64,000 bases of DNA, from NCBI GenBank assembly GCA_030065985.1, contig JASJCM010000012.1, positions 136-64,135 of the forward strand, given 5' to 3'. The translations under genes were made by a program, and so were the position numbers. This document shows, piece by piece, positions 46,081 through 64,000 of this stretch. Origin of the DNA: Woeseiaceae bacterium (GTDB lineage Bacteria; Pseudomonadota; Gammaproteobacteria; Steroidobacterales; Woeseiaceae). Position 1 is the stretch's first letter. Every line of letters begins with the position of its first letter. The notes beneath the pieces were generated by a model. That model ran no database searches, was not told the DNA's origin, and was given only the letters and a program-made list of their open reading frames with translations.

Positions 46081-46557
46081 CTATTTCCCGGGCCGCCACT
46101 CGACTCCGCCCAGGTACTTCGAGATCTCCGACCTCAGGTAACTGGCGCCCCAGAATTTCATTCTGTACCAATAGATAGCGGTTCCAGACGCGATCACGGC
46201 GGCCACAGCATTGAAATACTCTCGCAAGTAGACAAGGTATATCGCTAACGCCAGCAAGAAAACAGCTGCTACGACTAACGTCCCAAGTGGCCAGGCGCCG
46301 AATGTCGTAGTCAAGAACACGACGGACCCGCCCCCATCGTCGTCAGCAACCTTTCCGGATGCGACAACAGTCGAACCCATCCCGGCCGTTCTCGAGACCT
46401 GGAACTGGTCGCCATCCACGCGCGTATAGGTTCGATTAACGGCACCGGCGACAATCCTGCCGGCCATGAATCCAGACCCTCGTTCCTTGGGCATGCTGTC
46501 CAGCGCGCTTATGACCTCAGCCGCTGACATTGTGGACCTAGCCGTATGCTTCATCAC
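46081..46557 (-). CDS. hypothetical membrane protein
   Basis: 158 aa with two C-terminal TM helices. The start is either 46557 (20-nt overlap with the guaD stop) or the ATG at 46530. Confidence 0.45.
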   Translation of the reverse strand: MMKHTARSTMSAAEVISALDSMPKERGSGFMAGRIVAGAVNRTYTRVDGDQFQVSRTAGMGSTVVASGKVADDDGGGSVVFLTTTFGAWPLGTLVVAAVFLLALAIYLVYLREYFNAVAAVIASGTAIYWYRMKFWGASYLRSEISKYLGGVEWRPGK

Positions 46558-47827
46558 CCAGGATCCAGGTGCTTGCTACGTTTCGATCGTCGGCGAGTGT
46601 CATTAGCGCGAACAGCTTCTCGTCGATCGAAGCAGCGGCGCGCATGCGCCGCGCGGTCAGCGGCGAGCCCTCGAAATCAAGCATAGTGAAGTCCGCTTCC
46701 TTGCCGGGTACGAAGTTGCCAATCTTGTCATCAAGGTACAGCGCCTCCGCGGCACCCAGTGTCGCAAGGTAGAGGGCGCGCATCGCAGGCAGCGCGTGTT
46801 CCTGAAGGTGGAGCACCTTGTATGCTTCGCTGGCCGTCGCCAGCAGGGACAGGCTCGTGCCACCGCCAACATCGGTGCCAAGACCGCAGCGGATGCCGGC
46901 GGCACGCATCGCTGGCAGGTCAAACAGGCCGCTGCCGAGGAACAGGTTGGACGTGGGACAGAACGCTGCCGCACCGCCCTTCTTCGACATCGTCGCACGA
47001 TCTTCGTCGTCCATATGCAGGCAATGTGCGAACACTGCACGCTCGCGAAGCAGGTCGAACTGGTCGTAAACGTCGAGGTAACTGCGGCTGTCCGGAAACT
47101 GCCGCGCGATTTCCTCGATTTCGTCGTGATTCTCGGCGAGATGCGTGTGGATCCAGACGTCGGGATGCTCGGCGGCAAGCCGGCCGGCCATCGCGAGCTG
47201 CTCCGCCGACGAAGTCAGAGCAAACCGCGGCGTGATCGCATAACCCAGCCTGCCGTTGCCGTGCCAGCGATCGATCAGCGCTTTGCTTTCCGCGTAACCG
47301 GTTTCCGAATCGTCGCGCAGTTCGTCCGGGCAATTGCTGTCCATCAGTACCTTGCCGGCAACCAGGCGCATGCCCCTGGCGCCTGCGGCTTCGAAGATCG
47401 CATCGGCCGAATGCGCGTGCACGGTGCCGAATACGAGCGCCGTCGTGGTGCCGTTGCGCAGCAGTTCGTCGACGAAAGCATGCGCAACATCGCGCGCGTA
47501 GCCAGGGTCAGCGAACTTCATCTCGGCCGGGTAGGCGTACTGGTTCAGCCAGTCGAGCAACTGCGCGCCGTACGAACCAATAATGTCGAGCTGTGGAAAG
47601 TGCACGTGGCAGTCAATGAATCCGGGAACGATCAGCTTGCCGGTGTGATCGAGTACCTGTGAATCCGCTGGAAGCCTGCCCAGCAGCACGTCGGTCGGGC
47701 CGACTTCCGCAACATGACCTGCGTCAACAACAAGCAAGCCGTCTTCGAAGTATTCGAATGCGGCCGGATTGGACTTCTCCCCGGGGTCTGCGAGGCAGTG
47801 AAGCACCGATGCTCGCAGCGCCTGCAC
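46538..47827 (-). CDS. guaD: guanine deaminase
   Basis: 429 aa with a GTG start. Motifs IDCHVHFPQ and GTDVGGGTS. Confidence 0.82.
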   Translation of the reverse strand: MQALRASVLHCLADPGEKSNPAAFEYFEDGLLVVDAGHVAEVGPTDVLLGRLPADSQVLDHTGKLIVPGFIDCHVHFPQLDIIGSYGAQLLDWLNQYAYPAEMKFADPGYARDVAHAFVDELLRNGTTTALVFGTVHAHSADAIFEAAGARGMRLVAGKVLMDSNCPDELRDDSETGYAESKALIDRWHGNGRLGYAITPRFALTSSAEQLAMAGRLAAEHPDVWIHTHLAENHDEIEEIARQFPDSRSYLDVYDQFDLLRERAVFAHCLHMDDEDRATMSKKGGAAAFCPTSNLFLGSGLFDLPAMRAAGIRCGLGTDVGGGTSLSLLATASEAYKVLHLQEHALPAMRALYLATLGAAEALYLDDKIGNFVPGKEADFTMLDFEGSPLTARRMRAAASIDEKLFALMTLADDRNVASTWILGDEAYG

Positions 47828-48315
47828 TACACGCTCTCCAGCATCACGGTCTCGTCGAGCATGTGTTCCTCACAGTTCGGCTCAATCCCACCACGATCGA
47901 CAATCAGGAACTCCTGGCCAGCATCGAATGCGATTAGCGGCATATGCCAGGTACCGCGATGGTAGTTAATGCCCTGCTTGCCGTTGGTCACGAACGCGCG
48001 TAAATCCGCGGCGTCCACGCTTTCGCCCGGTGGCGCCACGACGACGACCATGCGACAGGGCGTGAGAGGCACGAACGCCTGGCTGCCGCGCGGGTGGCGC
48101 TCAACCATGTCGACACGCAACGGCAGCAACGTTGGCGTACGGCACCGCGTGACGCTGATCGCAACATCGCCCTCGATATTTACGTTGCACAGGTTATCGA
48201 ACCGCTCAAAGCGCGCTTCGTTCATCGCGCTCGCAGCCTGGTGCGATGATTCAATGACGTCGCCGTAGGGCGCGAACCTTTCTCGGGTCAGGGGCTCCGG
48301 GCGCAACGAGATCAC
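47827..48315 (-). CDS. allA: ureidoglycolate lyase
   Basis: 162 aa. N-terminus EPLTRERFAPYGDVIE is AllA-like. Confidence 0.8.
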   Translation of the reverse strand: MISLRPEPLTRERFAPYGDVIESSHQAASAMNEARFERFDNLCNVNIEGDVAISVTRCRTPTLLPLRVDMVERHPRGSQAFVPLTPCRMVVVVAPPGESVDAADLRAFVTNGKQGINYHRGTWHMPLIAFDAGQEFLIVDRGGIEPNCEEHMLDETVMLESV

Positions 48316-48321
48316 AATCTG

Positions 48322-49290
48322 CTAACCGTGAACCTGGCCAAACAGGCGAATTCGACTCACACCGCCGTCCGGGTAAATCGACATCCGGACATGGCTGACA
48401 TCGCCGATGTCGTTGAGCACATCGTCGAAGTAGTGTTGCTGGTCCATCTTGAGCCTGGCCTCCGGCAGCAGCGTCTGCCACTTCGGCGAATCGTTGCTCG
48501 CGTCTTCATCCGACTCGAACAGTGCGGCTTCCAGCGACACTCGATCAGGGTAGTTTCCCTTGAAGTGCGCCGTGTCGATCTCGGCACGTTCGATGGTGGC
48601 GGGCCGCCCAAGAGCAATGATGACCCAATCGTTGCCGGGGCCGCGGCGCCGCGCCGTCTCCCAGCCATCTCCCATGTTCAGACCGCGCCCTGGCGCAGTC
48701 AGGTTGTGCACGCTACCGTAGTGCTCGTCGCTGCACGCGATCGGTCGGCCACCATGCTCAACGGCTGCCAGGTCGACATAGCCGTCGATACCCGTGAAGT
48801 CCGCACGCACTTCGCCGAAGACGCGGAGCCTGGCTACGCCGCCATCGGGATAGATATGCAGCCTGACGTGCGTGAAGATCATGTCGCTACGTACATCAAG
48901 ATAATGATGTGCGTTGCCGGACGTCGGAGTCTTCGGCACCAGCTCGATCCAGCCGTCATCGGGTTCATCGGTATCGCTGACGCACCCCTCTATCGAGATC
49001 TTCGGTGCATAGTTGCCTGTGAAGTGACTCGTATCGACATCGAAACCGTGGATGATGCCCGGCACGCCGAGCCGCACGATGCACCAGTCATGCCCTGGCT
49101 CTCGTTTGCGGCGACTCTCCCAGCCGTCCATCCACTTGCCGTGGTCGTCATACTTGTCTTCGATAAACACCGGCTCAGCAGGATCGATCAGGCGTTCCTT
49201 CGCGCCGAAAAAATCATCGGTCGCGAACGTAACCCGTGAACCGAGTCGCGGATGCTCGAGTTGCACCCATTTGCGAACCTCATGACTCAT
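48322..49290 (-). CDS. alc: allantoicase
   Basis: 322 aa. Two internal allantoicase repeats (..FTGNYAP../..FKGNYPD..). Confidence 0.85.
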   Translation of the reverse strand: MSHEVRKWVQLEHPRLGSRVTFATDDFFGAKERLIDPAEPVFIEDKYDDHGKWMDGWESRRKREPGHDWCIVRLGVPGIIHGFDVDTSHFTGNYAPKISIEGCVSDTDEPDDGWIELVPKTPTSGNAHHYLDVRSDMIFTHVRLHIYPDGGVARLRVFGEVRADFTGIDGYVDLAAVEHGGRPIACSDEHYGSVHNLTAPGRGLNMGDGWETARRRGPGNDWVIIALGRPATIERAEIDTAHFKGNYPDRVSLEAALFESDEDASNDSPKWQTLLPEARLKMDQQHYFDDVLNDIGDVSHVRMSIYPDGGVSRIRLFGQVHG

Positions 49291-49778
49291 GCGTTGCCCT
49301 CCATCGCCTCGAGGCGCAGGCGCGCAATCTTGTGAATCTCCTCGAGTGCCGTCTCAAATTCGAGATCGTAATCGTTCTTCAGGCGCGCGCTGAACGCGTC
49401 GAGAATTTCGTCACGACTACTGTCCCGAACCGCCATGACAAACGGGAAGCCGAACTTGTTCTTGTAGGCATCGTTCAGGGCCTGGAAGCGCTCATACTCG
49501 ACCTTCGAGCACTGGTCGAGTCCCGCGCTGGCCTGTTCCGCTGTTGAATCGGCCGTCAGTTCGCCCGCAATCTGCGCTTTGCCCGCGAGGTCGGGGTGCG
49601 CCCGGATCAGTGCGAGTTGCTGCTCAGACCCTGCGTTATCGACGCAATCGGCCATCAGCGTCGCGAGGCACTCGACATCGTCCGATTCGGCCGCAAGTGG
49701 CGCGACCTGCTCGGCAACCCATGGCGAGTGTTCGTAGATGCCGCCGTAGCGCGCAATGAAATCGTGTGTGTCCATCAT
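49287..49778 (-). CDS. uraD: 2-oxo-4-hydroxy-4-carboxy-5-ureidoimidazoline (OHCU) decarboxylase
   Basis: Start trimmed to the ATG at 49778, which forms an ATGA overlap with the puuE stop. Motifs YGGIYEHSPWVAE, IRAHPDLAG and FGFPFVMAV. Confidence 0.85.
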   Translation of the reverse strand: MMDTHDFIARYGGIYEHSPWVAEQVAPLAAESDDVECLATLMADCVDNAGSEQQLALIRAHPDLAGKAQIAGELTADSTAEQASAGLDQCSKVEYERFQALNDAYKNKFGFPFVMAVRDSSRDEILDAFSARLKNDYDLEFETALEEIHKIARLRLEAMEGNA

Positions 49779-50680
49779 GTTGTCGTTCCCGGCGGATGAT
49801 GTTCGCGCCAGTGGCGAGCGATGTCGAGACGGGTCGCAATCCAGACGTCGTCCTGCTTGCCGACGTAGTCGAGGAATTTCGCGACGGCTGCCGCGCGCCC
49901 GGGTCGGCCCGCAAGGCGGCAATGCAGACCAATCGACATCATGCGACCACCTTCTGCATGCAGCGTTCTGAACGTGTCCTTGAGGTAGCGCAGGAATTGC
50001 TTGCCGGTATTGAAACCCTGTGCCGTCGCGAATCGCATGTCATTGGCGTCGAGCGTATACGGCACCATCAGTTGCGGTTCGCCATGCGTCGTGTCCCAGT
50101 AAGGCAGGTCATCGGCATAAGTGTCCGCGTTGTAGACAAAGCCTCCCTCTTCCGCAACAAGGCGATGTGTATTCGGGCTACAGCGCCCGAGGTACCAGCC
50201 GAGCGGTCGCTCACCCGTCACCCGCTCGTGAATCGCGATCGCCTTGAGCAGATGATCACGCTCGGTATCTTCGTCGACGTGCTGGTAATCGACCCAGCGA
50301 TAGCCGTGACTTGCGATCTCCCAACCGGCGTCGCGCATTGCAGCGACGGCATCCGGGTTGCGCTCGAGCGCCATCGCCACGCCAAACACCGTTACTGGCA
50401 GACCGCGCTGCGTGAACAGGCGATGCAGGCGCCAGAATCCGGCCCTTGACCCGTATTCATAGATTGACTCCATGTTCATATGACGCTGCCCTTCGATCGG
50501 CTGGGCGCCAACGATTTCCGAGAGAAAAGCCTCGGATGCGGAGTCGCCGTGCAGCACACAATTCTCGCCGCCTTCTTCGAAGTTGATTACGAACTGCACC
50601 GCCGTCCGGGCACCGCCGGGCCACGCAGCGGCGGGTGGCGTGCGGCCGTAACCGCGCATGTCCCTTGGATAGTCGCTCAT
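49775..50680 (-). CDS. puuE: allantoinase PuuE (polysaccharide-deacetylase fold)
   Basis: Start trimmed to the ATG at 50680, which forms an ATGA overlap with the puuD stop. N-terminus MSDYPRDMRGYGRTPP..VQFVINFEEGGE. Confidence 0.85.
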   Translation of the reverse strand: MSDYPRDMRGYGRTPPAAAWPGGARTAVQFVINFEEGGENCVLHGDSASEAFLSEIVGAQPIEGQRHMNMESIYEYGSRAGFWRLHRLFTQRGLPVTVFGVAMALERNPDAVAAMRDAGWEIASHGYRWVDYQHVDEDTERDHLLKAIAIHERVTGERPLGWYLGRCSPNTHRLVAEEGGFVYNADTYADDLPYWDTTHGEPQLMVPYTLDANDMRFATAQGFNTGKQFLRYLKDTFRTLHAEGGRMMSIGLHCRLAGRPGRAAAVAKFLDYVGKQDDVWIATRLDIARHWREHHPPGTTT

Positions 50681-51867
50681 TCGGCGCCCCGCAGTTCCTG
50701 GTACCACATGTCGAGTATCTGCCGCTCTTCGTCCGTCATCGCCGTCAGGTTGCCAATCGGCATGACACGGGTAACAACAGCTTGCTGATAAATGCGGTCG
50801 GCGTCGTTAGTGATCTGTTCTTCGGTGTCGTACACGATGCCCAACGGCGCGACCGGGAATGCCGGGTGTACGGGGGCAGCGGAATGGCAGCTTGTGCAGC
50901 GCGCATTGACGACATTGCGGACCTGGTCAAACGATACGCTGCCCTCGCGGGTCTCGCCGGCACGCGGCGCGATCGCGATCGCTATGGCGGCCAGAATCAT
51001 GATGGCAACCGCGGCGGGCAGCAGGGACGCCTCGCCAGAGTGCCGGTTGACGAAGTAGATGCGGACCAACGCGCCTGCGAGCGCTATGCCAACGAGAATC
51101 AGCCAGTTGTACTCGTGACCATAGGCCATCGCGTAGTGGTTACTCGTCATGACAAACAGGACGGGCAACGTGAAATACGTGTTGTGCACCGACCGTTGCT
51201 TGGCGGTGATGCCGGGGCCCGGGTCAGGCGCCTCGCCACGCTCGGCTGCAGCGACCATCAGTTTCTGTCCCGGAATGATGACGAAGAACACGTTGGCGAC
51301 CATGATCGTGCCAAGGACGGCACCGAAATGCAGATAGGCGCCACGGCCACCGAAGAGCTCGCACAGCCCCCATGCGAGCGCGGCGGTCAGCACGAGCAGC
51401 ACGCCGGCAAACACACGCGTGTCATTAGCGAGCGGTGACTTGCAAAGCAGGTCATAGATCACCCACCCGCCAATAATGAACGCGATCGCGATGCCAACGG
51501 CGGCAGGAACAGACAAGTCGGCTACCGAGGGATCGATCAGGTAGATCTCTGCGCCGTACCAGTAGATGAGGGCAGTCAGGAAGATGCCGGACAGCCAGGT
51601 CGTGTATGCCTCCCACTTAAACCAGTGCAGCCTGTCCGGCAGGCGTGCAGGCGCTACCTTGTACTTCTGTGCGTGGTAGAAGCCGCCGCCGTGGACGGAC
51701 CAGACCTCACCGCCGACGCCCTTTTCATCGTCCGCTGCCTCCCGCGGCGCCTCGAGATGGTTATCGAGCCAGATGAAATAGAACGACGATCCTATCCACG
51801 CAACGCCGGCAATGAAATGCAGCCAGCGAATGAGCAGATTGAGCCAGTCGGCAATGTACGCTTCCAT
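50677..51867 (-). CDS. puuD: membrane-bound cytochrome c urate hydroxylase PuuD
   Basis: 396 aa, polytopic. N-terminus WLNLLIRWLHFIAGVAWIGSSFYFIWLDNHL. C-terminal heme c motif CTSCHS. Confidence 0.75.
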   Translation of the reverse strand: MEAYIADWLNLLIRWLHFIAGVAWIGSSFYFIWLDNHLEAPREAADDEKGVGGEVWSVHGGGFYHAQKYKVAPARLPDRLHWFKWEAYTTWLSGIFLTALIYWYGAEIYLIDPSVADLSVPAAVGIAIAFIIGGWVIYDLLCKSPLANDTRVFAGVLLVLTAALAWGLCELFGGRGAYLHFGAVLGTIMVANVFFVIIPGQKLMVAAAERGEAPDPGPGITAKQRSVHNTYFTLPVLFVMTSNHYAMAYGHEYNWLILVGIALAGALVRIYFVNRHSGEASLLPAAVAIMILAAIAIAIAPRAGETREGSVSFDQVRNVVNARCTSCHSAAPVHPAFPVAPLGIVYDTEEQITNDADRIYQQAVVTRVMPIGNLTAMTDEERQILDMWYQELRGAE

Positions 51868-51868
51868 G

Positions 51869-52912
51869 CTAACGACCTATCGGGTGCACGTTGTCCGGAT
51901 ACTCGGCCTCGGCCGATTGTGCGCGCTCGCGCAGCTTGAGGATCTCGGCGGCGACGGCAACCGCGATTTCCGCCGGTTTCTTGCCGTTGATGCCATCGAC
52001 GCCGATCGGGCAAACCAGTGAGTCGATGACATCCTGCGACATGCCCTGCTGCCGATACCGCTTCTCGAAGCGGCGGCGTTTGGTGACACTACCGATTAGC
52101 CCGCAGTAGTGCGCGTCGCCGCGCCGCAGAATACGATCGACGATATCGAAATCGAGCGCGTGACTGTGCGTCATAACGAGGTAGTAGCTGTCCGGGGGCA
52201 ATGCGGCCACCTCGAGAGCCGGCTCTGCCGACTCGATGGCACGCACATTACGGGGCACATCGCGGAAGATATTGCGACGGTTGTCGATCCAGCGAATATT
52301 GCAGTCGAGGCTCGCGAGCGCCGCAACGACCGCCGAACCGACATGCCCGGCGCCGAATACGGCGATGTTGAGATCCGGCATGACAGCCGGCTCATAGAAT
52401 TCCTGCACGTTACGTTGCGCCGACCGGTCGCCCGCCAGGATGTCCCGGGCTCGCGTCACCATCGCCTCATCAGCGCCGGCCTCGCCTTCGCCGAAGACCG
52501 CGTCCCGTGTCACAACGAATTTCGCCGGCGCCGATCGAGAGATGCGTGTCGCAACGATCGCCGGTTCGCGCTGCCCATAAAGCGCGCCGAGATCGCGCAG
52601 CCACGCCGGCATTCCACCCGCGATAGGTTCGAACAGTATTTCGACCACGCCACCACAGCATTGGCCCATTGATGAACCCAGCGGGAAACTGCGCAGCGCG
52701 AGCTGATCATCCTCGAGCATGTCGACCGCGACGCGGGTGCTTTGGTACTCGAGCTGACCGCCACCGATCGTCCCGATCGTCTCCGTGCGAGTCACAATCA
52801 TCTTCGCGCCAATCTCTCGTGGCGCTGAACCACGAATACCCGCGACCGTTACAAGCACGGCCGGCTCGTCCGCGGCGCTGAGATCGGTCAGTTCCTCGAT
52901 CCATTCATTCAT
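51869..52912 (-). CDS. xdhC: xanthine dehydrogenase accessory protein XdhC
   Basis: Start trimmed to MNEWIEEL (ATG at 52912, 8-nt overlap with xdhB). Contains VTVAGIRGSAPRE and a Rossmann motif AVFGAGHVG. Confidence 0.85.
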   Translation of the reverse strand: MNEWIEELTDLSAADEPAVLVTVAGIRGSAPREIGAKMIVTRTETIGTIGGGQLEYQSTRVAVDMLEDDQLALRSFPLGSSMGQCCGGVVEILFEPIAGGMPAWLRDLGALYGQREPAIVATRISRSAPAKFVVTRDAVFGEGEAGADEAMVTRARDILAGDRSAQRNVQEFYEPAVMPDLNIAVFGAGHVGSAVVAALASLDCNIRWIDNRRNIFRDVPRNVRAIESAEPALEVAALPPDSYYLVMTHSHALDFDIVDRILRRGDAHYCGLIGSVTKRRRFEKRYRQQGMSQDVIDSLVCPIGVDGINGKKPAEIAVAVAAEILKLRERAQSAEAEYPDNVHPIGR

Positions 52913-55193
52913 TGGGATCTTCCTGCAGAGCCCGCAGAATCGACTCTGGTGTTGCCGGCGCCCGGAGATCGGGCAGCGGTCGATCTTCAGTCGCCAGCGC
53001 GTCGCGCAACGCATGAAACGCGGAAAGCGCCAGCATGAACGGCGGTTCCCCAACAGCCTTCGAGCGGTAGATCGTCTTTTCGGTGTTTGCGTGGTCGCGA
53101 GTCAACTCAACCCGAAAATCGGGCGCGAGGTCCGAGCAGGTCGGAATCTTGTAAGTTGACGGCGCATGCGTGCCCAGCTCACCGCGGTCGTTCCACCACA
53201 GCTCTTCGGTCGTGAGCCAACCAACCCCCTGAACGTAACCACCTTCGACCTGGCCAAGATCGATAGCCGGGTTCAGCGAGTCGCCGCAGTCATGGAGAAT
53301 GTCGACGCGCAGGATGCGATGCTCGCCCGTCAATGTATCGACAATGACCTCGGTGACTGCAGCGCCCCAAGCGTAGTAGAAGAACGGCCGCCCGCTGAAC
53401 GTGCTGCGGTCGTAGTTGATCTTGGGCGTGCGGTAGTAGCCCGCTGCCGACAGGGACAGACGGGCGGCCCAGGCTTCGCAGACGAGCTCAGGAAAATCGA
53501 CGATGCGCTCGGCGATGTAGACCTTGTTGCTGCGGAAGTCGACCTCGGCTTCGGAGATGCCGTACTTGTGGGCGGCGAATGCCGTAAGGCGCTTGCGGAT
53601 CTTGGCGGCTGCTTTCTGCGCTGCCTTGCCGTTCATGTCAGAGCCACTCGACGCCGCTGTCGCAGAAGCGTTTGGTACTTTGCTCGTATCGGCAGCCGTG
53701 GTGCGCACCTTGTCGATCGTGACGCCGAGCTCATCAGCAACGATTTGCGCGACCTTGATATAAAGGCCCTGCCCCATCTCGGTACCACCGTGATTGAGCA
53801 TTACCGTGCCGTCCTTGTAGAGATGCACGAGCGCGCCAGCCTGGTTGAGCATCGTATTCGTAAACGAGATGCCAAATTTCACGGGCGTTATTGCTATACC
53901 GCGTCGCAGCACCCGGTTCGAAGCATTGAATTCGCGGATCTCGGCGCGCCGTTTCGCGTAGTCGCTGCTTTCGAGCAACCGATCGAACAGCGTCTCGGCA
54001 TAGTTCTCTGCGACAACCTGGTGATAGTGCGTGACGTTGCGTTCGTCCTCACCGTAGAAATTGCGGCGCCTTACCTCGAGCGGATCCTTGCCGAGCGTGC
54101 GCGCAATGTCCTCAATGACGTGCTCGATCGCGAACATGCCCTGCGGCCCGCCGAAACCGCGGAACGCCGTGTTCGACACCGTGTTCGTCTTGCAGCGATG
54201 CGACAGGATACGCACGTTCTCGAGGAAATACGCGTTGTCACAATGGAACATGGCCCGGTCGCTGATCGGACCGGACAGATCGGCCGACATGCCACACCGC
54301 GCTGCGAACTCGAAATCGATACCGAGAATACGTCCCGTGTCGTCGAACCCGACGTCATAGTCGATAACAAAGTCGTGGCGCTTACCCGTCATGACCATGT
54401 CATCGTCACGATCCAGTCGCAGCTTGCACGGTCGGCCTGTCTTGTCTGCCGCGATCGCGGCAATGGTCGCGATCAACGACGCCTGGCTTTCCTTGCCCCC
54501 GAAAGCGCCGCCTATGCGACGGCAGATAACGACGATGTCCTTTGCGTCGCGGCAAGTTGCGTGCGCAATGATCGCTTGCACTTCGTCGGGATGCTGCGTC
54601 GAGCTGTAAACGAGCATGCCACCGTCTTCCTGGGGCAATGCCATCGCGACATGGCCCTCCAGATAGAAATGGTCCTGACCGCCAACGTACAAACGATCCT
54701 GCTTGCGATACGGCGACTGTTCGAGCGCAGTATCCGGTTCGCCTCGCACGAGCGTCTCACTCGGTAGAACGAAGGACCCTTTCTCGACGGCGGTCAGAGG
54801 GTCGAAGATGGCTTCGAGTTCGTCGCAGGCGATGTCGGCTTTGCGTGCCGCCTTGCGCGCCGCGTCGACCGACATTGCGGCGACGGCAAAGACCGGCTGG
54901 CCGACATACTGTACGACGTCACCGGCGAAAACCGGATCGTCTTTGACGATACACCCATAATTGTTCTCGCCCGGAATATCCACGGATGTGCAGACGTCGA
55001 CAACGCCCTCCGCTGCCAGCACGGCGGACAGATCCACGTCTCGGATTCGGCCATGCGCAATCGTGCTCATACCGACCGCGAGATGCAGCAAGTCACGAGG
55101 TTCCGGCAGGTCATCCGTATAGGCCGCCTGGCCGGAGACATGCAGATGTGCGCTGTCGTGAGGCAGCGGTCTGCCGACAGCCCTAGCGTCCAT
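52905..55193 (-). CDS. xdhB: xanthine dehydrogenase molybdopterin-binding large subunit
   Basis: Start trimmed to MDARAVGRPLPHDSAHLHVSGQAAYTDD (ATG at 55193). Motifs GGAFGGKE and RGFGGPQG. Confidence 0.9.
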   Translation of the reverse strand: MDARAVGRPLPHDSAHLHVSGQAAYTDDLPEPRDLLHLAVGMSTIAHGRIRDVDLSAVLAAEGVVDVCTSVDIPGENNYGCIVKDDPVFAGDVVQYVGQPVFAVAAMSVDAARKAARKADIACDELEAIFDPLTAVEKGSFVLPSETLVRGEPDTALEQSPYRKQDRLYVGGQDHFYLEGHVAMALPQEDGGMLVYSSTQHPDEVQAIIAHATCRDAKDIVVICRRIGGAFGGKESQASLIATIAAIAADKTGRPCKLRLDRDDDMVMTGKRHDFVIDYDVGFDDTGRILGIDFEFAARCGMSADLSGPISDRAMFHCDNAYFLENVRILSHRCKTNTVSNTAFRGFGGPQGMFAIEHVIEDIARTLGKDPLEVRRRNFYGEDERNVTHYHQVVAENYAETLFDRLLESSDYAKRRAEIREFNASNRVLRRGIAITPVKFGISFTNTMLNQAGALVHLYKDGTVMLNHGGTEMGQGLYIKVAQIVADELGVTIDKVRTTAADTSKVPNASATAASSGSDMNGKAAQKAAAKIRKRLTAFAAHKYGISEAEVDFRSNKVYIAERIVDFPELVCEAWAARLSLSAAGYYRTPKINYDRSTFSGRPFFYYAWGAAVTEVIVDTLTGEHRILRVDILHDCGDSLNPAIDLGQVEGGYVQGVGWLTTEELWWNDRGELGTHAPSTYKIPTCSDLAPDFRVELTRDHANTEKTIYRSKAVGEPPFMLALSAFHALRDALATEDRPLPDLRAPATPESILRALQEDPNE

Positions 55194-56631
55194 AGTTGTA
55201 CACCGTCGTTTCGACTTCGCCCTGTGTTTCAAGCCAGAATCGTCGCAGAAGATTTTGCACCGCAACCAGGCGGAAATCGGCAGACGCCCGCATGTCGGTG
55301 ATCGGAGTGAAGTCCTCCGCTAGTGCTTTGCAGGCTGCTTCGATCGTCGCTTCGTTCCACGTCGCCCCAGTCACGGCGGCTTCGCAACGTTCGGCTCTCT
55401 GAACAGTCGCTGCCAGACCGCCGCAAGCCATGCGGAAATTGGCGACCTTGTCACCATCAAGCCGCAGACGATAGGCCGTGCAAACGGCCGAAATATCCTG
55501 ATCGAAACGCTTCGACCACTTCTGACTGCTGACGATGACACCGTCTTCGGCCAACGGAACGCGAATGCGTGCGAGGAACTCGCCAGGCTGTAAATCGTTA
55601 ACCTGGTAGTCGTGATAGAACTTGTCGAGCGACAGCTCGCGTTCGCTAAAACCGCGTTGCAGCACAAGTGATGCGCCGACCACCATGAGCGCCGGCATTG
55701 AATCACCGATGGGCGAGCCGTTGGCTATATTGCCGCCAAGCGTGCCGGCATTGCGGATCGGTGGCGAGGCATAGCGCTGGAACATCTCCGTCAGACCCGG
55801 ATATTGCTCGAGCAGCGCAGGAATCGCGTTCGTAAGAGTTACCGCAGCGCCGATTTCGAGGTGCGTGCCGGTCACCTCGACGTCGAGCATTTCCGCGACT
55901 TTGCCCGAATAGATGATTGTGCCGAGATCGCGATGCTGCTTCGTGACCCAGAGACCGATATCGGTTCCACCCGCGAGGATCGTCGCATCGGGATACTTTC
56001 CGTACAGTTTTGCAAACGTCACAATATCCTTGGGCGCATAGAAGTCACTGTCGCCGCAATCGATACCGAGGTTTTCGTCCCGCGCGATCTCGCGCAGCGT
56101 CTTGCTGTGCGCTGCCGCATCCCAGTTATCACCCTCGCCTGCCATCTTCTGCGCGGCAGCAACGATTGGCCGATATCCCGTGCACCGGCAGAGGTTGCCG
56201 GACAGCGCGTCATCGATTTCGCGACGGGTTGGCTTCGGATTGTTTCGGTACAGCTCGTACAGCGACATAACGAATCCAGGTGTGCAGAAACCACACTGCG
56301 AACCGTGCTCGTCAACCAGTGCCTGCTGCACCGGGTGCAAGGCTCCGTCTTCCCCGCGCAGACCCTCCACCGTGATGAGCTCTTTGCCATCGAGCGTCGG
56401 GAGAAACTGAATACACGAGTTGATAGTACGTGCCTCGACGCCGTCGCCACTGCTGTCGACCTCGACGACCACAACCGTGCAGGCGCCGCAGTCACCTTCC
56501 GCGCAGCCTTCCTTGGTACCGGTGAGGCGCAGATCCTCGCGCAGGAACTGCAGCACGGTGCGCGTCGGATCCGTGACGATGGTCTCGATGACCTCGCCGT
56601 TGAGTACAAAGCGAATCGTGCCGGCCGTCAT
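55183..56631 (-). CDS. xdhA: xanthine dehydrogenase small subunit (2x 2Fe-2S + FAD)
   Basis: Start trimmed to MTAGTIRFVLNGE (ATG at 56631). Motifs GCAEGDCGACTV and CRCTGY, plus an FAD-binding domain. Confidence 0.9.
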   Translation of the reverse strand: MTAGTIRFVLNGEVIETIVTDPTRTVLQFLREDLRLTGTKEGCAEGDCGACTVVVVEVDSSGDGVEARTINSCIQFLPTLDGKELITVEGLRGEDGALHPVQQALVDEHGSQCGFCTPGFVMSLYELYRNNPKPTRREIDDALSGNLCRCTGYRPIVAAAQKMAGEGDNWDAAAHSKTLREIARDENLGIDCGDSDFYAPKDIVTFAKLYGKYPDATILAGGTDIGLWVTKQHRDLGTIIYSGKVAEMLDVEVTGTHLEIGAAVTLTNAIPALLEQYPGLTEMFQRYASPPIRNAGTLGGNIANGSPIGDSMPALMVVGASLVLQRGFSERELSLDKFYHDYQVNDLQPGEFLARIRVPLAEDGVIVSSQKWSKRFDQDISAVCTAYRLRLDGDKVANFRMACGGLAATVQRAERCEAAVTGATWNEATIEAACKALAEDFTPITDMRASADFRLVAVQNLLRRFWLETQGEVETTVYNYGR

Positions 56632-56635
56632 TTCT

Positions 56636-56983
56636 TCAGCTACCTCGGTATGTCGAGTAGGACCAGGGAGATGCGAGCAGCGGCACATGGTAATCCTCGG
56701 CCGAATTAACGGCGAAGCGAATCACTACCGTGTCAAGAAATGCCGGGTCGGCAAGGGTCACGCCGCGGCCCCGGAAATAGACGCCGATGTCGAACTCGAG
56801 TTCGTAGGTCCCGGTGACAAAGACCTCATCCTCAAGCAACGGATAAGGCGTTCGTCCGTCTTCGTTCGTGGTCGCGCTCGCGAGAAGTTCGCGAGTATCG
56901 CGCACACTGAAAAGTCTTACGTCGACATTCGCCGCCGGCCCCCCGTGTGACGTATCGAGAATGTGCGTCGTCAATCGACCCAT
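56636..56983 (-). CDS. uraH: 5-hydroxyisourate hydrolase (transthyretin-like)
   Basis: Start trimmed to MGRLTTHILDTSHGGPA (ATG at 56983, after a GGGGG run). C-terminal signature YSTYRGS. Confidence 0.88.
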   Translation of the reverse strand: MGRLTTHILDTSHGGPAANVDVRLFSVRDTRELLASATTNEDGRTPYPLLEDEVFVTGTYELEFDIGVYFRGRGVTLADPAFLDTVVIRFAVNSAEDYHVPLLASPWSYSTYRGS

Positions 56984-57097
56984 TCTGCCCCCTTTATTCA
57001 CATCGTCTTGTTGCGATCGATTATACGCTGAAGGCGGCACTGCGCGGGCCTTCTGCCTGTGGTAGTTTGATCGAAAGAACAAGAACGGGGGGCTCGG

Positions 57098-57679
57098 ATG
57101 AAGAACTCCGACGCGATATCCAGACGTGGGTTTCTGAGGTCAGCCGGCGCGCTGGCCGGCTCGTCGCTGTTTCGACTAAGCGGAACGTCCCTGGCGGCAA
57201 TCGCGCAGGCCGCCTGCTCCGCGCGCGACGACGCGGCCGCGTTTGTGACGCTCGATAAGGCCGAGGCACGAGACTATGCCGCCGCAATTGCCCGGCTGAT
57301 ACCAACCACCGATACGCCGGGCGCCGGCGATGCCGGCGTGATCTGGTTTTGGGACAACGTCCTCGGCAATTACTACGCCCATCTTCTTGAGCCCGTGCGT
57401 GGCCTTCGCGACCGGCTGCTCACTGAGACTGATGGTCGTTTTGCGGATCTCGACGCGGATTCTCAAGATGCGGCTCTCAAGGCAATCGAAGACGACGGTC
57501 GATTCGAAATCTGGCGCATCCTGACGTTCTTTGGTTTCTTTGCGATGGCAAAGCACGGTGGCAACAAAGACCATCTGAGCTGGGACCTGGTCGGCTACAA
57601 CGGTCACCATGCCGCCTGGCAGCCGCCTTTCGGGTATTACGATGCCGAATACCTGAAGGAGCGCGCCGATGACGGGTAA
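57098..57679 (+). CDS. gluconate 2-dehydrogenase subunit-3-like small subunit, Tat signal
   Basis: 193 aa. Twin-arginine signal SRRGFLRSAGALAG. Directly precedes, and overlaps, the GMC flavoprotein gene. Confidence 0.75.
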   Translation: MKNSDAISRRGFLRSAGALAGSSLFRLSGTSLAAIAQAACSARDDAAAFVTLDKAEARDYAAAIARLIPTTDTPGAGDAGVIWFWDNVLGNYYAHLLEPVRGLRDRLLTETDGRFADLDADSQDAALKAIEDDGRFEIWRILTFFGFFAMAKHGGNKDHLSWDLVGYNGHHAAWQPPFGYYDAEYLKERADDG

Positions 57680-59345: not shown

Positions 59346-59798
59346 ATGAAACACCTCCTTCTGCTGCTGCCGCTACTCATGCTCATGGGCTGTGAAGTCA
59401 AAGTCGACAAGGATGCCGATGTTGAGTACCTGCTGATGCCAGGCATGGAAGACCTGGACCTGCCGTTCTCGTCCGCGGTCCGCGTCGACAACACGCTGTA
59501 TCTGTCCGGCAACCTCGGCAACATGCCGGGCACCATCGAACTCGCCGAGGGCGGCATTGCCGGTGAGACGCGTCAGACGATGGAGAACATCAAGGCCGTG
59601 CTCGAGCAATTCGGCTCGTCGATGGATGAGGTCGTCAAATGCACCGTGTTCCTCGCGGACATGGCCGAATGGGGCGCAATGAACGAGGTCTACAAGACCT
59701 ACTTCGAGAACCCGCCAGCGCGCAGCGCACTTGGCGCAAACGGCCTCGCACTCGGGGCGCGCGTCGAGATCGAGTGTATTGCGGTCCTGCAGCCCTGA
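59346..59798 (+). CDS. RidA/YjgF family protein with a lipoprotein signal peptide
   Basis: Signal peptide MKHLLLLLPLLMLMGC, followed by a full RidA fold (..VKCTVFLADM..PARSALG..VEIECIA). Confidence 0.78.
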   Translation: MKHLLLLLPLLMLMGCEVKVDKDADVEYLLMPGMEDLDLPFSSAVRVDNTLYLSGNLGNMPGTIELAEGGIAGETRQTMENIKAVLEQFGSSMDEVVKCTVFLADMAEWGAMNEVYKTYFENPPARSALGANGLALGARVEIECIAVLQP

Positions 59799-59801: not shown

Positions 59802-61595
59802 TTACTGCTTGAGCAACTCGTCGCGGCGCTGCCTGAGCGACCTGAGCCGGCGCCGGTCGAGAACGTCGCTCAGGTTCTCCGAGAGGACCTCATCGCCAAG
59901 GGCCGCGAGTGCCTCGCGCCAGCCGTCGGTAATCTCGAGTTTGACGGTCTTCAGGTGAGGCGGTCGGGACCGCGTAGCCTTGAAGGCTCGCTCGTGTTCG
60001 ACGAGGATCAGGCTCCAGTCAGACGGCTCGTACATCATGCGCTCCAGGCTGCGACCCTCGTTGTGGATCAGCGTATCGAATACGTACATCGCGTCCCACT
60101 GCGATGGCAATGCGCAGGGCGCGCTGCTGCCGCGCCCGCTCGTTGAGCGTTGTGCTTCATCGCTCGCGCGATTCGGCACGAACTGCAGCGAACCGTCCTC
60201 GCCATTGACGGTGCGAATGACGGAAACGGGCACCATATCCAGATCGATCAGTCGATCGATTCGATAAGCAGCGACATCAGGATAAAAACCCTTGCCGGTT
60301 CGCCTGGCGAAGAGCGCCGAGACCGTATGCGTGCCGTCGCTGACACGAACGACCGTACGCTCGGACTCTTCATCTTTGGTTGACTCCACGATATCGCCGT
60401 TTCGGAGCAGGACCTGCAGTTGCTCCGGCGACATCTTGCCGGGGCGTGCACCGACCTGACGCGGATGTGCGATCGGCGAATAAGGCTCACTGCCGTCCTC
60501 GTTGTGAACGAGAAGCTCGCCGTCTTGCAGCACGAGCGCGTTACCGCTGCCCTTGTAGTAGAAACCGAGCATGCCCGTATCGACCTCGACCACCAGCCCG
60601 TCGAAGCGCTGCAGTACCCTGCGGTTAGGCGTCGGCGTATGGCCAACGACGACGCGATCCGCGCCGATCGACTCGAGTGCATCCTCGAGCCGATGTTTCT
60701 CGATCAATCCGCTGCACTTGACGTTGCCGCGATACCACAGCGGGCCGTCGCTGCTCAGTACGGCTGAGTCGCTAAGTCTCTGCACGGCCTTGATCGCGTC
60801 GAGCACATCACGCGACTCGTCGAGCGCGGGAACGTAGTTGGTGACGAGCCGTTCATGGTCGTAAAAGCTGTCGGTCGGCAACAGGACGCCGGCATCGGTC
60901 AGCGTTTCGAGCGCATGCACGTAGGTCGAGAGGTTCTTTCTCAGGTTCTTGTTGACGCCTTCGAGCCCCATCTCAATGACGACAGGCGGCAGCCCCCCAT
61001 GCACAAAGGCAGCACGATTGATCACCGCAATAATCGGCTTGTCGAGTAACCACTTACCGTACTTGCCGTCGGCGCTGAACGCCTCGGCCAGGGCAAAGTA
61101 ACCCTGCGGGAACGTGTTGTCGAAACTGTCCCTGAGCGGCGTGGACGCTCCGCCACGGCGGGCTGCCCAGGCCTCGAACCAGCGATCGCGTTCGCGAGAG
61201 GTCTCATCCTTCGCAAACGCGGCATACTCGGCTTTGCTAACGTAACGAAGGTCGCCAATCATGTTCATCATTTCATGATTGCCGATCAGGACATGAACAT
61301 GGCCGCCGGCCTCCTCGGCCTCGCCTTCGAGCCGCATCATGAGATCCATGGCGTCGCGCGAGCGCGGCCCGCGATCGAGCAGATCACCGATGACGACGAG
61401 ATGCGTATCGCCACCAGCCCAGTTGAGCTCGTCATCCAGGATGTCGACGTTGCGCAGCGTCTGGACCATTGCGTCGAAGGCGCCGTGCACATCGGAGATC
61501 GCGACCACCCTGCTGGCACCCTCTACAGGTCCGTCCTCTGCGAATGTGACAGGGGTCGCGAGTATCACGAACAGGAAGGCAGCGAGCATGCGCAT
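59802..61595 (-). CDS. exported metallophosphoesterase (PPP/calcineurin-like) fused to a Fam20/CotH/PI3K-PI4K-like kinase-fold domain
   Basis: Start trimmed to MRMLAAFLFVILATPVTFA (the ORF-track start at 61616 is a TTG). MPE motifs occur in order: ISDVHG, GDLLDRG, GNHE, VHGG, GHTP. The C-terminal 200 aa carry AAYRIDRLIDLDMVPVSV, VFDTLIHNEGRS and LILVEHERAF. Confidence 0.7.
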   Translation of the reverse strand: MRMLAAFLFVILATPVTFAEDGPVEGASRVVAISDVHGAFDAMVQTLRNVDILDDELNWAGGDTHLVVIGDLLDRGPRSRDAMDLMMRLEGEAEEAGGHVHVLIGNHEMMNMIGDLRYVSKAEYAAFAKDETSRERDRWFEAWAARRGGASTPLRDSFDNTFPQGYFALAEAFSADGKYGKWLLDKPIIAVINRAAFVHGGLPPVVIEMGLEGVNKNLRKNLSTYVHALETLTDAGVLLPTDSFYDHERLVTNYVPALDESRDVLDAIKAVQRLSDSAVLSSDGPLWYRGNVKCSGLIEKHRLEDALESIGADRVVVGHTPTPNRRVLQRFDGLVVEVDTGMLGFYYKGSGNALVLQDGELLVHNEDGSEPYSPIAHPRQVGARPGKMSPEQLQVLLRNGDIVESTKDEESERTVVRVSDGTHTVSALFARRTGKGFYPDVAAYRIDRLIDLDMVPVSVIRTVNGEDGSLQFVPNRASDEAQRSTSGRGSSAPCALPSQWDAMYVFDTLIHNEGRSLERMMYEPSDWSLILVEHERAFKATRSRPPHLKTVKLEITDGWREALAALGDEVLSENLSDVLDRRRLRSLRQRRDELLKQ

Positions 61596-61694
61596 CGACG
61601 AGTTCAGCACGTTCAAGGTGTCCGTTACGAAGGAAGCTCAGTGTAGTGGCTATGCTAGACTTTGACCACCAAAGCAACGGACAGATCAACAACA

Positions 61695-62747
61695 ATGACA
61701 CCGCTGCGAATCGTTCTCATTCTGATCCTTGGTATGACTCCGCTTGTCTTGCAGGCGGATGACGAGGAGAAGAAGGTCGCGCCGCTGTTCGCGAGCAACG
61801 ATGTGCTTGCGATCACCATAACCGCGCCGTTCTCCGAGATCATGGAAGACCGTGAGTCTGACGAGGAATTTCCCGCCACCCTGACTTACACCGACGCGGA
61901 GGAAGAAGAGGTCAGCGTCGATCTCGAGCTACGAACCCGTGGACGCTATCGGCGCCAGTCCCGCACCTGTAGCTTCGCTCCGCTCCGGCTCAACTTCAAA
62001 AAATCTGCGGTCAAGGAAACTGTCTTCGCAAAATCCGACAAACTCAAACTCGTGACGCATTGTCGTGACAGGTCACGTCGCCATCAGCAGTCCCTTATCA
62101 CCGAGTATATTGCGTATCGGACGTTTAATATCGTCACCGACCTCAGCTTTCGTGTGCGACCGCTGCTGGTCAGGTACGTAGACTCCAGCGGCGAGGAGAA
62201 GGACCGCGAGGCCTTTGCTTTTGTCATTGAGCATCGCGACCAGCTTGGCAAGCGAATCGGGTTAAACACCAACGAGATTGAAAAGACCAGCATCGAGGCA
62301 CTGGACGGCGCTCACACCAACCTCGGCTCCATGTTCCAGTACCTGATTGGCAACACGGACTTCTCGCCGATACGCGGTGCCGACGGCGAGCCCTGTTGTC
62401 ACAACAACATGCTGTTCGGCGATACGAAAGGCGAGATTCTGGCCATTCCCTACGACTTTGACATGTCCGGTCTCGTGAATGCTCCCTACGCCACCCCGAA
62501 CCCGCGCTTCAAATTGCGCAACGTAAGGCAGCGGCTTTATCGTGGCCGCTGCGCCAACAAAGAGCACATCGACGGATCGGCGGAGACATTCATCCGTCAC
62601 AAAGCCGAAATTTATGCGTTGCTCGACAAGCACTCAGACCTGTCCACTAAAACCAGGATAGTAACGGTTCAGTACCTCGACCAGTTTTACGCCATTCTCG
62701 AGAACGACAGGAGACGCACGTCGCTGCTCACGGACAGGTGCATTTGA
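61695..62747 (+). CDS. exported CotH-like atypical kinase family protein
   Basis: Start trimmed to MTPLRIVLILILGMTPLVLQA. CotH-like blocks: LRTRGRYRR..APLRLNFKK, KLKLVTHC, EYIAYRTFN, FQYLIGNTDFS and IPYDFDMSG. Confidence 0.6.
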   Translation: MTPLRIVLILILGMTPLVLQADDEEKKVAPLFASNDVLAITITAPFSEIMEDRESDEEFPATLTYTDAEEEEVSVDLELRTRGRYRRQSRTCSFAPLRLNFKKSAVKETVFAKSDKLKLVTHCRDRSRRHQQSLITEYIAYRTFNIVTDLSFRVRPLLVRYVDSSGEEKDREAFAFVIEHRDQLGKRIGLNTNEIEKTSIEALDGAHTNLGSMFQYLIGNTDFSPIRGADGEPCCHNNMLFGDTKGEILAIPYDFDMSGLVNAPYATPNPRFKLRNVRQRLYRGRCANKEHIDGSAETFIRHKAEIYALLDKHSDLSTKTRIVTVQYLDQFYAILENDRRRTSLLTDRCI

Positions 62748-62751
62748 TTCG

Positions 62752-63708
62752 CTAAGTCTTGGCGAGCCAGTCGATGATGATCTTCGTCAGGCGTGGGTGG
62801 ATGAAGTAGCCGATCGAACTGTGCGGGTTCGCCTTGCCGTACCGCACCGCAAGATTGAAGATTCGATAGTCATGCACGGCACTGACTTGCCGTTTGCGCA
62901 GCATCGTCCTGAAATCATCTGCAAGCGTTGCATCGTGGCAGGTGTAGTCATCCTCGGCTGACAGGTTGTGCCAGGAGATGACGTTACTCGGGAAACGCGC
63001 TTCTTCACGCTCCTGTGCGCCAAGCAGACGCTTCTGCACGATGCGATCGCCGAGCGGTGAGCCGAGCGTCACCCACTGATCGACCTTGCAATCGCCGTAC
63101 TCGGGACACGTCTCCGTGTCGTTCGACAATTCCCACAGCACATCGTACGCGACCACACTGCCGGTGCCGTGCGTTACAAGCATGATGTGTTTGTTGGCGT
63201 CCATGAGTTCGCAGATCTTGTCGCGTACTCGCGCGCGAGCCTCGTCGGCGAAACCGTCTTCGTTGTTCAGATAAGCAGCGAAGTCCTTCGCCATCCTGCC
63301 GATGACCGGCATTCGCATCCCGACCACGCTGGAAACCGTCGCGCCGATATCCATGAAGAATTCGGGGAGTGCCGACTTGCCGGGCAGCTTGTCGTACATG
63401 CGAATGCCGAATTTTTTGCGCGGCGCTATCTGCGACAGGGACTGCAGCACGTTGCGACGATCACCAACGTCGAGTTTCTCGTCGTACGTTTTGCCCCTGG
63501 CCGCGAGTACGCCCGCGTTGAGATCGCCGTACCAGGCAACGTCGACCGGCAACGCATCGAAACCAGCCACCTGCTCCGGGTAGTCGCGCTCAACGCCCTT
63601 GCGCAAGGCAGTGCGAGCAAGCTCCAGGTAGGTCTCTGCGGCCGGCTTGAAATCCCGACCATGCACGATGAGAAGACTGAAGTCCTTTTGTTCCTCTACG
63701 GCCGCCAT
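62752..63708 (-). CDS. alpha/beta-hydrolase-like protein lacking the canonical GxSxG elbow
   Basis: 318 aa with no signal peptide. Contains LLIVHG, then LVTHGTGSVVAY where GHSxG would be expected, then TLGSPLG. Confidence 0.45.
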   Translation of the reverse strand: MAAVEEQKDFSLLIVHGRDFKPAAETYLELARTALRKGVERDYPEQVAGFDALPVDVAWYGDLNAGVLAARGKTYDEKLDVGDRRNVLQSLSQIAPRKKFGIRMYDKLPGKSALPEFFMDIGATVSSVVGMRMPVIGRMAKDFAAYLNNEDGFADEARARVRDKICELMDANKHIMLVTHGTGSVVAYDVLWELSNDTETCPEYGDCKVDQWVTLGSPLGDRIVQKRLLGAQEREEARFPSNVISWHNLSAEDDYTCHDATLADDFRTMLRKRQVSAVHDYRIFNLAVRYGKANPHSSIGYFIHPRLTKIIIDWLAKT

Positions 63709-63716
63709 TGTAATCC

Positions 63717-64000
63717 CTACTGGTAGTCGTCCTCGCCGCCGTCACGCCGCGTCATCATGGTCAGGAATGGCCCGGACAAGGTCTTGCCATATTCAAGCTT
63801 CCAGATGATAAGCGTCGCCCAGACAAACGTGAACGATATCACCCCGGCAATACCGAGTGCCCCGATGCCGGAACCCAGCCCGACACCGATTGCGACAAAT
63901 ATGTACATGGCGTCGGATGGCTGATTGAGCGTAAAGCGAAAACGCACCGCGGCAACCACGCCGGCGAGACTGAACGCCAGCGCGATGCTGTTGACGACGA
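63717..64000 (-). CDS. DUF4956 domain membrane protein (partial; 5' end lies beyond the right edge)
   Basis: The frame stays open to the window edge (..VVNSIALAFSLAGVVAAVRFRFTLNQPSDAMYIFVAIGVGLGSG..). The (A/I)VRFR..(k/n)(d/q)P.D..(f/y)(l/i)F.AI..G block matches DUF4956 from memory. Confidence 0.6.
   Translation of the reverse strand, partial: VVNSIALAFSLAGVVAAVRFRFTLNQPSDAMYIFVAIGVGLGSGIGALGIAGVISFTFVWATLIIWKLEYGKTLSGPFLTMMTRRDGGEDDYQ

Follow-up and report, generated by a model that had tools for sequence, protein, structure and literature searches.

Do the genes at positions 59802–64000 of a Woeseiaceae contig (JASJCM010000012.1), at the end of a 64,000-nucleotide stretch referred to here as the window, encode a system that transfers phosphoryl groups outside the cytoplasm, and if so, from which donor? 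Four genes lie there: one for a metallophosphoesterase (MPE) fused to a kinase-like domain, a CotH-like gene, one for a DUF4956 membrane protein and one for an alpha/beta-hydrolase-like protein. They form a clade-specific four-gene set that is clearly conserved in marine, Woeseiaceae-like Gammaproteobacteria, and our data suggest that the locus is a reversible extracytoplasmic phosphorylation system. The explanation we tentatively favor, at somewhat less than an even chance, is a periplasmic writer/eraser pair. The CotH-like protein would be the kinase and the MPE the phosphatase, with a dead kinase fold directing the latter, and both would be co-regulated from the spacer between their genes.

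Beyond the window we used ENA ERZ23486730 scaffold_122 (66,631 nt; locus L001), the sole public contig of identical sequence that was found, positions 7802–19050 of which correspond to window positions 64000–52752 at 100% identity. It runs 7.8 kb past the window end, and window positions 1–5170 lie outside its other end; the two sequences therefore represent separate assemblies of one organism. To collect relatives of the CotH-like gene, each GTDB species was scanned through a single genome, which gave 584 loci. Neighborhoods were analyzed in the best 80 of these, all of them from Woeseiaceae-like metagenome-assembled genomes (MAGs), with 43–67% identity. The nearest named relatives were Woeseiaceae and Gammaproteobacteria MAGs.

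The same four genes appeared in the list of open reading frames (ORFs) and in a separate gene call made on scaffold_122. All genes and coordinates of the original prediction, made from the window alone, were present, as were the 99-bp divergent spacer, the 8-nt intergenic gap and the signal-peptide-like N-termini. The features are listed below with the tools or comparisons that assigned them.

59802–61595, minus strand: putatively exported fusion protein, 597 aa from ATG, with signal peptide, PPP/Shelph-type metallophosphoesterase and predicted C-terminal pseudokinase (ORF, gene call, Pfam)
61539–61595, minus strand: signal-peptide-like N-terminus of the fusion, MRMLAAFLFVILATPVTFA followed by ED (hydrophobic core, AXA-like site)
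60633–61511, minus strand: metallophosphoesterase domain, residues 29–321 (Pfam Metallophos, motifs)
59805–60464, minus strand: kinase-like domain of about 220 residues, Fam20/HipA_2/PI3-4K-like (profile against PDB, Pfam on family members)
61639–61671, no strand assigned: conserved non-coding element CAGTGTAGTGGCTATGCTAGACTTTGACCACC with the imperfect inverted repeat AGTGTAG-N8-CTAGACT (spacer comparison)
61695–62747, plus strand: putatively exported, divergent CotH-family kinase-like protein, 350 aa (gene call, AlphaFold2 (AF2)/Foldseek, Pfam matches of homologues)
62752–63708, minus strand: predicted cytoplasmic protein of lipase/DDHD-like alpha/beta fold, 318 aa, with Gly181 at the nucleophile position (AF2, Foldseek)
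63717–64000, minus strand: 3' part of the DUF4956 membrane-protein gene, which in full measures 651 nt (216 aa) and extends 367 nt past the window (L001 7435–8085)

The phosphatase fusion and its dead kinase fold

The N-terminal domain of the fusion matched Pfam PF00149 Metallophos with an E-value of 2.4e-12 (48.1 bits vs a cut-off of 21.5), and all of its motifs were intact: DVHG (residues 35–38), GDLLDRG (70–76), GNHE (105–108), VHGG (198–201) and GHT (318–320). The tail of the domain matched the Shewanella cold-active protein-tyrosine phosphatase 1V73/2Z72 with E 3.5e-5. The fusion thus resembles the Shelph phosphatases as a bacterial PPP-type metallophosphatase with GDxHG/GDxxDRG/GNHE motifs, with the match covering the C-terminal part, but differs from them in its signal peptide and in the 220 additional residues with a kinase fold. 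Its ORF is open up to 61616, and the signal-peptide-like N-terminus was kept in 36/36 orthologues. Signal peptides were called here and below by a crude heuristic, not by SignalP.

The C-terminal domain had been placed in the Fam20/CotH kinase superfamily. Signals for a kinase-like domain of the Fam20/HipA/PI3-4K group were weak but consistent, at the level of the fold only. A profile search against PDB found the pseudokinase FAM20A (E 2.7e-4) through an AAYR(L/I)DRL motif. Among 31 homologues of the domain, Pfam recognized HipA_2 in 13, PI3_PI4_kinase in three and Fam20C in one. The domain of the window protein scored 12–14 bits for HipA_2, under the cut-off of 27, and a distant family member (P0333) passed the cut-offs with 29.8 bits for HipA_2 and 29.4 for Fam20C. 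The family is large: a profile search of 1.84 billion representatives gave 3466 clusters with the kinase-like domain. Among the 150 best of these, proteins of about 600–650 aa with the domain at the C-terminus were the commonest form, and those tested carried an N-terminal Metallophos domain. In other lineages, MPE and kinase-like domain are also encoded as separate neighboring genes.

The original prediction had counted the fusion among exported kinase-like proteins that could use a phosphoryl donor. An alignment of the domain from 138 family representatives and 71 orthologues of the clade did not support this. The canonical signature K...FD.LI.N.DRN..N...IDH occurred in 62 of the 138 representatives, and in 46 all three catalytic residues were gone. 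In the Woeseiaceae clade the signature was found in 0/71, and 67 of the 71 orthologues had lost all three catalytic residues plus the lysine. The window protein reads A/G/R/E in the columns of the Lys, Asp, Asn and DFG-like Asp (LFARR, NEGRSLER, VEH; motif positions FDTLIHNEGR 506–515 and LVEHERAF 531–538). With Lys, catalytic Asp, Asn and DFG-like Asp lost in this clade, the domain is, judged from its residues, a pseudokinase. It is well conserved despite the catalytic loss, as would be a pseudokinase under selection. A motif shared with the CotH-like protein had also been claimed, in the form (F/Q)(D/Y).LI.N. A common F..LI.N is indeed present (FDTLIHN, FQYLIGN), but not exactly in the pattern written. 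Comparing the fusion domain with the CotH-like family, hhalign returned a probability of 0.2% and showed no specific relationship, though the F..LI.N motifs align.

The arrangement recalls the FAM20A–FAM20C pair, where likewise a dead kinase fold stands beside an active atypical kinase in an extracytoplasmic setting; FAM20A was also the top kinase-like PDB match of the fusion domain profile. There are differences, however: the pseudokinase of the Woeseiaceae locus is fused to a phosphatase, and its active partner would be a CotH-like protein and not a paralogue of the pseudokinase, an interaction that is purely hypothetical.

The CotH-like protein and the divergent spacer

The CotH-like protein belongs to a very large family (>5693 matches). 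Its AF2 model (pLDDT 79, pTM 0.81) had Bacillus cereus CotH (5JDA/5JD9) as top Foldseek matches with E 4.6e-10 and a probability of 1.0, followed by PI4K/PI3K at E about 1e-3. PF08757 CotH was matched by 13 of 38 aligned homologues, and five orthologues of 55–57% identity lay above the gathering score (26–31 bits vs 23.8), in the N-lobe only. The CotH assignment of the original prediction thus holds by the modelled fold and by way of orthologues that pass Pfam CotH, but not by a Pfam match of the window protein itself. The residues N220-T-D222, C234-C235-H236-N237 and Y253-D254-F-D256 were invariant across the 38 homologues, as were all six cysteines of the protein. A signal-peptide-like N-terminus, with basic n-region, hydrophobic core and AXA-like site, was found in 71/73 orthologues. 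Localization is judged from this heuristic together with the cysteine pattern. From sequence and model, the gene product is an exported and probably active CotH-family enzyme.

The spore-coat kinase CotH of Bacillus retains equivalents of D166, N171 and D184 of PKA (PMC12189002) and is inactivated by D228Q and D251A (PMC7821199). The CotH-like protein shares with it the fold, as the best structural match, an N-lobe motif that in orthologues fits Pfam CotH, and candidates for an invariant Asp/Asn/Asp set, which would be the equivalents of the catalytic residues of CotH (D228/D251 in B. subtilis). It differs in being only 14% identical and itself under Pfam detection, in its longer, Cys-Cys-bearing catalytic loop and in its Sec signal peptide and six invariant cysteines, which indicate a periplasmic location. 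CotB- or CotG-like substrates are not seen here.

Further copies of this family were seen among the loci. A paralogous, exported CotH-like subfamily (L074 9302–11023, L077 9239–10957, L082 138–3748) has its own conserved context: a hemolysin-III-like membrane protein is encoded upstream in L074 and L077, and a malic-enzyme-like gene downstream, directly in L077 and one gene further in L074 and L082. None of the MPE, DUF4956 and 318-aa partners occurs at these three loci. In one related genome, a second, more divergent CotH-like copy (L072 6931–8082, about 39% identical to the listed homologues) lies directly downstream of the fusion gene, besides the usual divergent copy.

The fusion and CotH-like genes diverge from a spacer of 99 bp (61596–61694). 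In related loci it is equally short, about 65–170 bp in all but one. Of 43 spacers, 34 matched the 16-nt reference TGGTCAAAGTCTAGCA at at least 10 of 16 positions, with the core GTCTAGCA kept best, across loci whose proteins share just 43–67% identity. The element is a candidate for a shared operator or promoter. A sigma-54 reading (TGG-N9-AGCA) was rejected, as the GG is lost in more distant loci, and a sigma-70 scan of the spacer gave nothing above shuffled sequences.

The DUF4956 operon and the phosphoryl donor

The DUF4956 gene runs off the window. The gene recovered from L001 was 100% identical to the window over the overlap, and the full-length protein confirmed the assignment with 35.0 bits for PF16316 vs a cut-off of 30.6, covering only profile positions 7–110 of 169; the fragment inside the window stayed below the threshold (26.4 bits vs 30.6). 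The protein has about 5–6 hydrophobic segments and is without the C-terminal third, the cytoplasmic tail, of the Pfam model. A search of a plasmid database gave no match for the CotH-like protein and found DUF4956 in unrelated contexts only.

Second in the operon, 8 nt downstream of the DUF4956 gene and convergent to the CotH-like gene, is the gene for the 318-aa protein. With 1787 homologues, it was the most conserved of the four (at least 70% identity where the CotH-like protein has about 55%). No transmembrane segment and no signal peptide were called. Pfam assigned no family and gave only weak DUF900, LCAT and PGAP1 matches (E at least 0.04), PF02862 DDHD did not match even at E up to 10, and the profile found chance matches only among PDB sequences. 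The sole significant Foldseek match of its model was the DDHD domain of Nir2 (9JYX, E 9e-5), with cutinases, LCAT/LPLA2 and thioesterases behind it in the list at E>0.1. The alpha/beta-hydrolase-like label therefore stands for an atypical, probably lipase/DDHD-like fold but not for a serine nucleophile: in place of a G-x-S-x-G elbow, the strand-turn-helix reads VTH-G181-TGS, with an invariant Gly replacing the nucleophilic Ser.

Nir2 DDHD also has Gly (G565) at the nucleophile position of a lipase fold, which binds the headgroups of phosphatidic acid and phosphatidylserine without catalysis (PMC12582312). The 318-aa protein shares with it, by its model, the lipase-like alpha/beta fold and the exchange of Ser for Gly. 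It is 14% identical, however, has no Pfam DDHD match, and is a stand-alone bacterial protein co-transcribed with a membrane-protein gene. On the model, the DDHD resemblance is structural only. Many Asp and His residues of the 318-aa protein are invariant, so that metal or ligand binding may still be possible.

CotH, DUF4956 and VTC (polyphosphate-polymerase-like) genes had been named as recurrent neighbors, and published work describes this co-occurrence at the pel loci of Gram-positive bacteria (PMC7112168; bioRxiv 10.1101/2024.04.20.589940). There they form an accessory module, to which DUF4832 may be added (Whitfield 2020, PMC7112168). An example is SIR_1592–1594 of S. intermedius (bioRxiv 10.1101/2024.04.20.589940), and the linkage of CotH with DUF4956 recurs independently in Firmicutes and Actinobacteria (PMC7112168). 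The forecast drawn from it, a VTC-like gene just past position 64000, failed. Rightward extension showed a PfkB gene on the opposite strand, then a gene without an assigned function and then a microcompartment operon, and no VTC/CYTH gene (PF09359) was present among the called genes from about 11 kb of the window to 7.8 kb past its end. None was seen at the related locus L002/L003 either. Like the pel-type module, the Woeseiaceae locus has a secreted CotH-type gene beside a DUF4956 gene in a non-sporulating host. Unlike it, it misses the VTC polymerase, the pel genes and DUF4832 altogether, its DUF4956 protein lacks the C-terminal (ACT-like) part, and it adds the MPE–pseudokinase fusion and a serine-less lipase-like protein in a Gram-negative host. 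It is not the CotH–VTC–DUF4956 module.

A hint to the donor came from relatives of the fusion that keep the catalytic residues. Fusions with an intact catalytic signature were used as seeds for scanning metagenomes, which gave 80 loci (L086–L165). Their recurring neighbor was a protein of about 920 aa in which a TLC ATP/ADP transporter (PF03219) is joined to HEAT repeats (NTT-HEAT). Its gene immediately adjoined the kinase-like gene in 27 of the 80 loci and in 13 of the 26 that had 3 kb or more of flanking sequence. Three arrangements were seen: kinase then NTT-HEAT; MPE then NTT-HEAT with the kinase converging; and fusion then NTT-HEAT (example loci: L117 2844–6276, L122 1867–7261, L145 6147–11195, L105 7953–12997). 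Most of the fusion or kinase-like proteins sampled in this branch start with a signal-peptide-like sequence. The neighborhood of a stand-alone canonical relative, P0195, was uninformative.

NTT-HEAT fusions have been described as a widespread clade whose function is uncharacterized (Major, Embley & Williams 2017, PMC5381601). They adjoin the catalytically intact branch of the same MPE/kinase-like family and are not found at the Woeseiaceae locus, which has the DUF4956 operon and the CotH-like gene instead. By analogy, the sister branch supports the idea that the kinase-like family acts in an extracytoplasmic setting and depends on a supply of donor, and points to nucleotides rather than polyphosphate (polyP) as donor.

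Conservation of the neighborhood and competing readings

Conservation around the CotH-like gene was counted in loci with sufficient flanking sequence:

Fusion gene adjacent: 67/73 loci with room
318-aa gene adjacent: 64/71 loci with room
DUF4956 gene adjacent: 60/67 loci with room
PfkB gene adjacent: 58/64 loci with room
RidA gene adjacent: 39/72 loci with room

The predicted conservation of the four-gene neighborhood was thus borne out in about 90% of the 80 species-level loci, but within one family-level clade and with PfkB equally conserved.

The flanks hold several further observations. The RidA/L-PSP family gene (window 59346–59798, plus strand, Pfam E 6e-33) begins with a lipoprotein-type N-terminus (LLMLMGC), unusual since it implies an exported RidA; a gap of 3 nt separates the gene from the 3' end of the fusion gene, a position kept in 39/72 related loci. 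Immediately left of the cluster is a complete purine-catabolism block (window about 46500–57100, syntenic in L002/L003) with XdhC, large and small subunits of xanthine dehydrogenase, HIU hydrolase (transthyretin-like), a member of the urate oxidase N-terminal family, OHCU decarboxylase, allantoicase, ureidoglycolate lyase and an amidohydrolase. The microcompartment operon to the right (L001 349–5646, about 2.2–7.5 kb past the window end) comes after PfkB and a conserved protein of about 194–230 aa of unknown function. It encodes BMC-H/T shell proteins, three EutN/CcmL proteins, an aldehyde dehydrogenase and a DeoC+RpiB fusion and looks like a sugar-phosphate or deoxyribose-type metabolosome. 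Elsewhere in the window, two other unusual genes encode a 620-aa DUF7843/Lnb_N/DUF7840 protein (14130–15992, minus strand) and a 7TM-HisKA/PAS/GGDEF signalling protein (30134–32092, minus strand). Rfam showed nothing relevant, and PADLOC matched no defence system.

In the writer/eraser mechanism we favor, the CotH-like enzyme would phosphorylate an envelope substrate, protein or glycan, in the periplasm, and the exported phosphatase would take the mark off again. The dead-kinase domain would direct the phosphatase to the shared substrate or to the kinase itself, as in the FAM20A–FAM20C pair, and the conserved element in the 99-bp spacer would co-regulate the two genes. The DUF4956/318-aa operon might provide an inner-membrane and cytoplasmic arm for donor delivery or signalling, a role suggested solely by the recurrence of DUF4956 with exported CotH in pel loci and by NTT-HEAT adjoining the intact sister branch. 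The substrates, donors and interactions named here are inferred.

Several observations weigh against this mechanism. On the side of the kinase, the window CotH-like protein matched no Pfam family at E up to 1 and no NCBIfam family, and the structural TM-score to CotH was only 0.48. Since PDB searches with both its profile and its single sequence gave nothing, no residue-by-residue alignment to the catalytic positions of CotH was obtained. No phosphoryl donor for a periplasmic kinase was identified at the locus, and the model of the 318-aa protein was of moderate confidence (pLDDT 65.6). The spacer element occurs once in the window and is unique also in L001, and therefore does not tie in the DUF4956 operon. 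As to the grouping of the genes, CotH-like paralogues stand alone in eight of the loci in other contexts, and none of the 80 canonical-fusion loci had CotH-like, 318-aa or DUF4956 neighbors. The linkage was seen only within one family-level clade in which the unrelated PfkB is equally syntenic (58/64), so that a functional link can only be inferred.

These last points would fit a possible, if somewhat unlikely, alternative, namely synteny without shared function: independent envelope genes would be adjacent because the clade inherited the whole neighborhood. PfkB is conserved like the core genes, with RidA at 39/72, all 80 loci stem from Woeseiaceae-like MAGs, the CotH-like paralogues are solitary near hemolysin-III-like and malic-enzyme genes, canonical fusions of other lineages do without these partners, and DUF4956 in Chondrinema adjoins HlyD, not CotH. 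The core, however, stays intact while the flanks vary. RidA is missing in about half of the loci, and in five loci insertions of 0.9–1.1 kb separate DUF4956 from PfkB. The short spacer of the divergent pair and its element are kept at 43–67% protein identity, and the CotH–DUF4956 linkage is seen again, independently, in Firmicutes and Actinobacteria (PMC7112168).

Less probable, and in our view unlikely, is a set for phosphorus scavenging or for the modification of glycans or lipids. The MPE would then serve nutrition, as a phosphatase or diesterase, and the dead kinase fold would be a module that binds substrate or nucleotide. The CotH-like enzyme would phosphorylate a polysaccharide or lipid, and the lipase-like/DUF4956 pair would handle a membrane lipid. 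Fam20-type folds do include sugar kinases; Fam20B phosphorylates xylose. The MPE motifs are intact in a protein predicted to be exported, the structure nearest to the 318-aa protein binds lipid headgroups (Nir2 DDHD; PMC12582312), and loci for Pel polysaccharide are known to carry CotH modules (PMC7112168). Yet no pho box or Pho-regulon context was recognized and no polysaccharide genes are nearby, and the strong purifying selection on the dead kinase domain agrees more with a specific partner than with bulk scavenging.

The model of the original prediction, in which a VTC-like polymerase makes polyP, DUF4956 passes it on and polyP serves as donor for exported kinase-like proteins, is very improbable. 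In its favor, any periplasmic kinase requires a donor, and genes for CotH, a VTC-like polymerase and DUF4956 are repeatedly found side by side in Gram-positive bacteria (PMC7112168; bioRxiv 10.1101/2024.04.20.589940). Against it, nothing at this locus points to polyP, no VTC gene is present in window 11–64 kb or the 7.8 kb past it, the modelled fold of the DUF4956 partner is lipase/DDHD-like and not a triphosphate tunnel, and this DUF4956 protein does not cover the C-terminal part of its Pfam model. The neighbor in the sister branch is an ATP/ADP transporter, which points to nucleotides.

The writer/eraser pair could be one case of a wider scheme, which as a whole we hold to be speculative and quite unlikely. 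Bacteria would have dedicated periplasmic phosphorylation systems in which an atypical kinase and a PPP phosphatase, both exported, are combined with a conduit for the donor in the inner membrane. In the ancestral form NTT-HEAT, an ATP/ADP transporter, would have fed a single Fam20-like kinase, whether free or in one chain with the phosphatase. In Woeseiaceae the fused kinase would have died and turned into a domain for regulation or targeting like FAM20A, a CotH-type kinase would have taken over catalysis, and the DUF4956/lipase-like pair would have replaced the transporter.

In conclusion, each component of the locus is of a known kind: CotH, PPP/Shelph, Fam20-like fold, DUF4956 and DDHD-like fold. 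In a limited literature search, we found no published description of their combination, of the conserved pseudokinase state, of the absence of VTC or of the association of the sister branch with NTT-HEAT. Regulated phosphorylation outside the cytoplasm of Gram-negative bacteria and its phosphoryl donor are largely unaddressed, and this locus is a concrete and widely conserved candidate for it. The comparison with the sister branch also suggests a function for two large uncharacterized families, the MPE–kinase-like fusions with their 3466 representative clusters and the NTT-HEAT transporters, for which ATP supply to an exported kinase would be a possible role. The catalytically intact relatives that lie beside NTT-HEAT proteins make the question of the donor directly testable.

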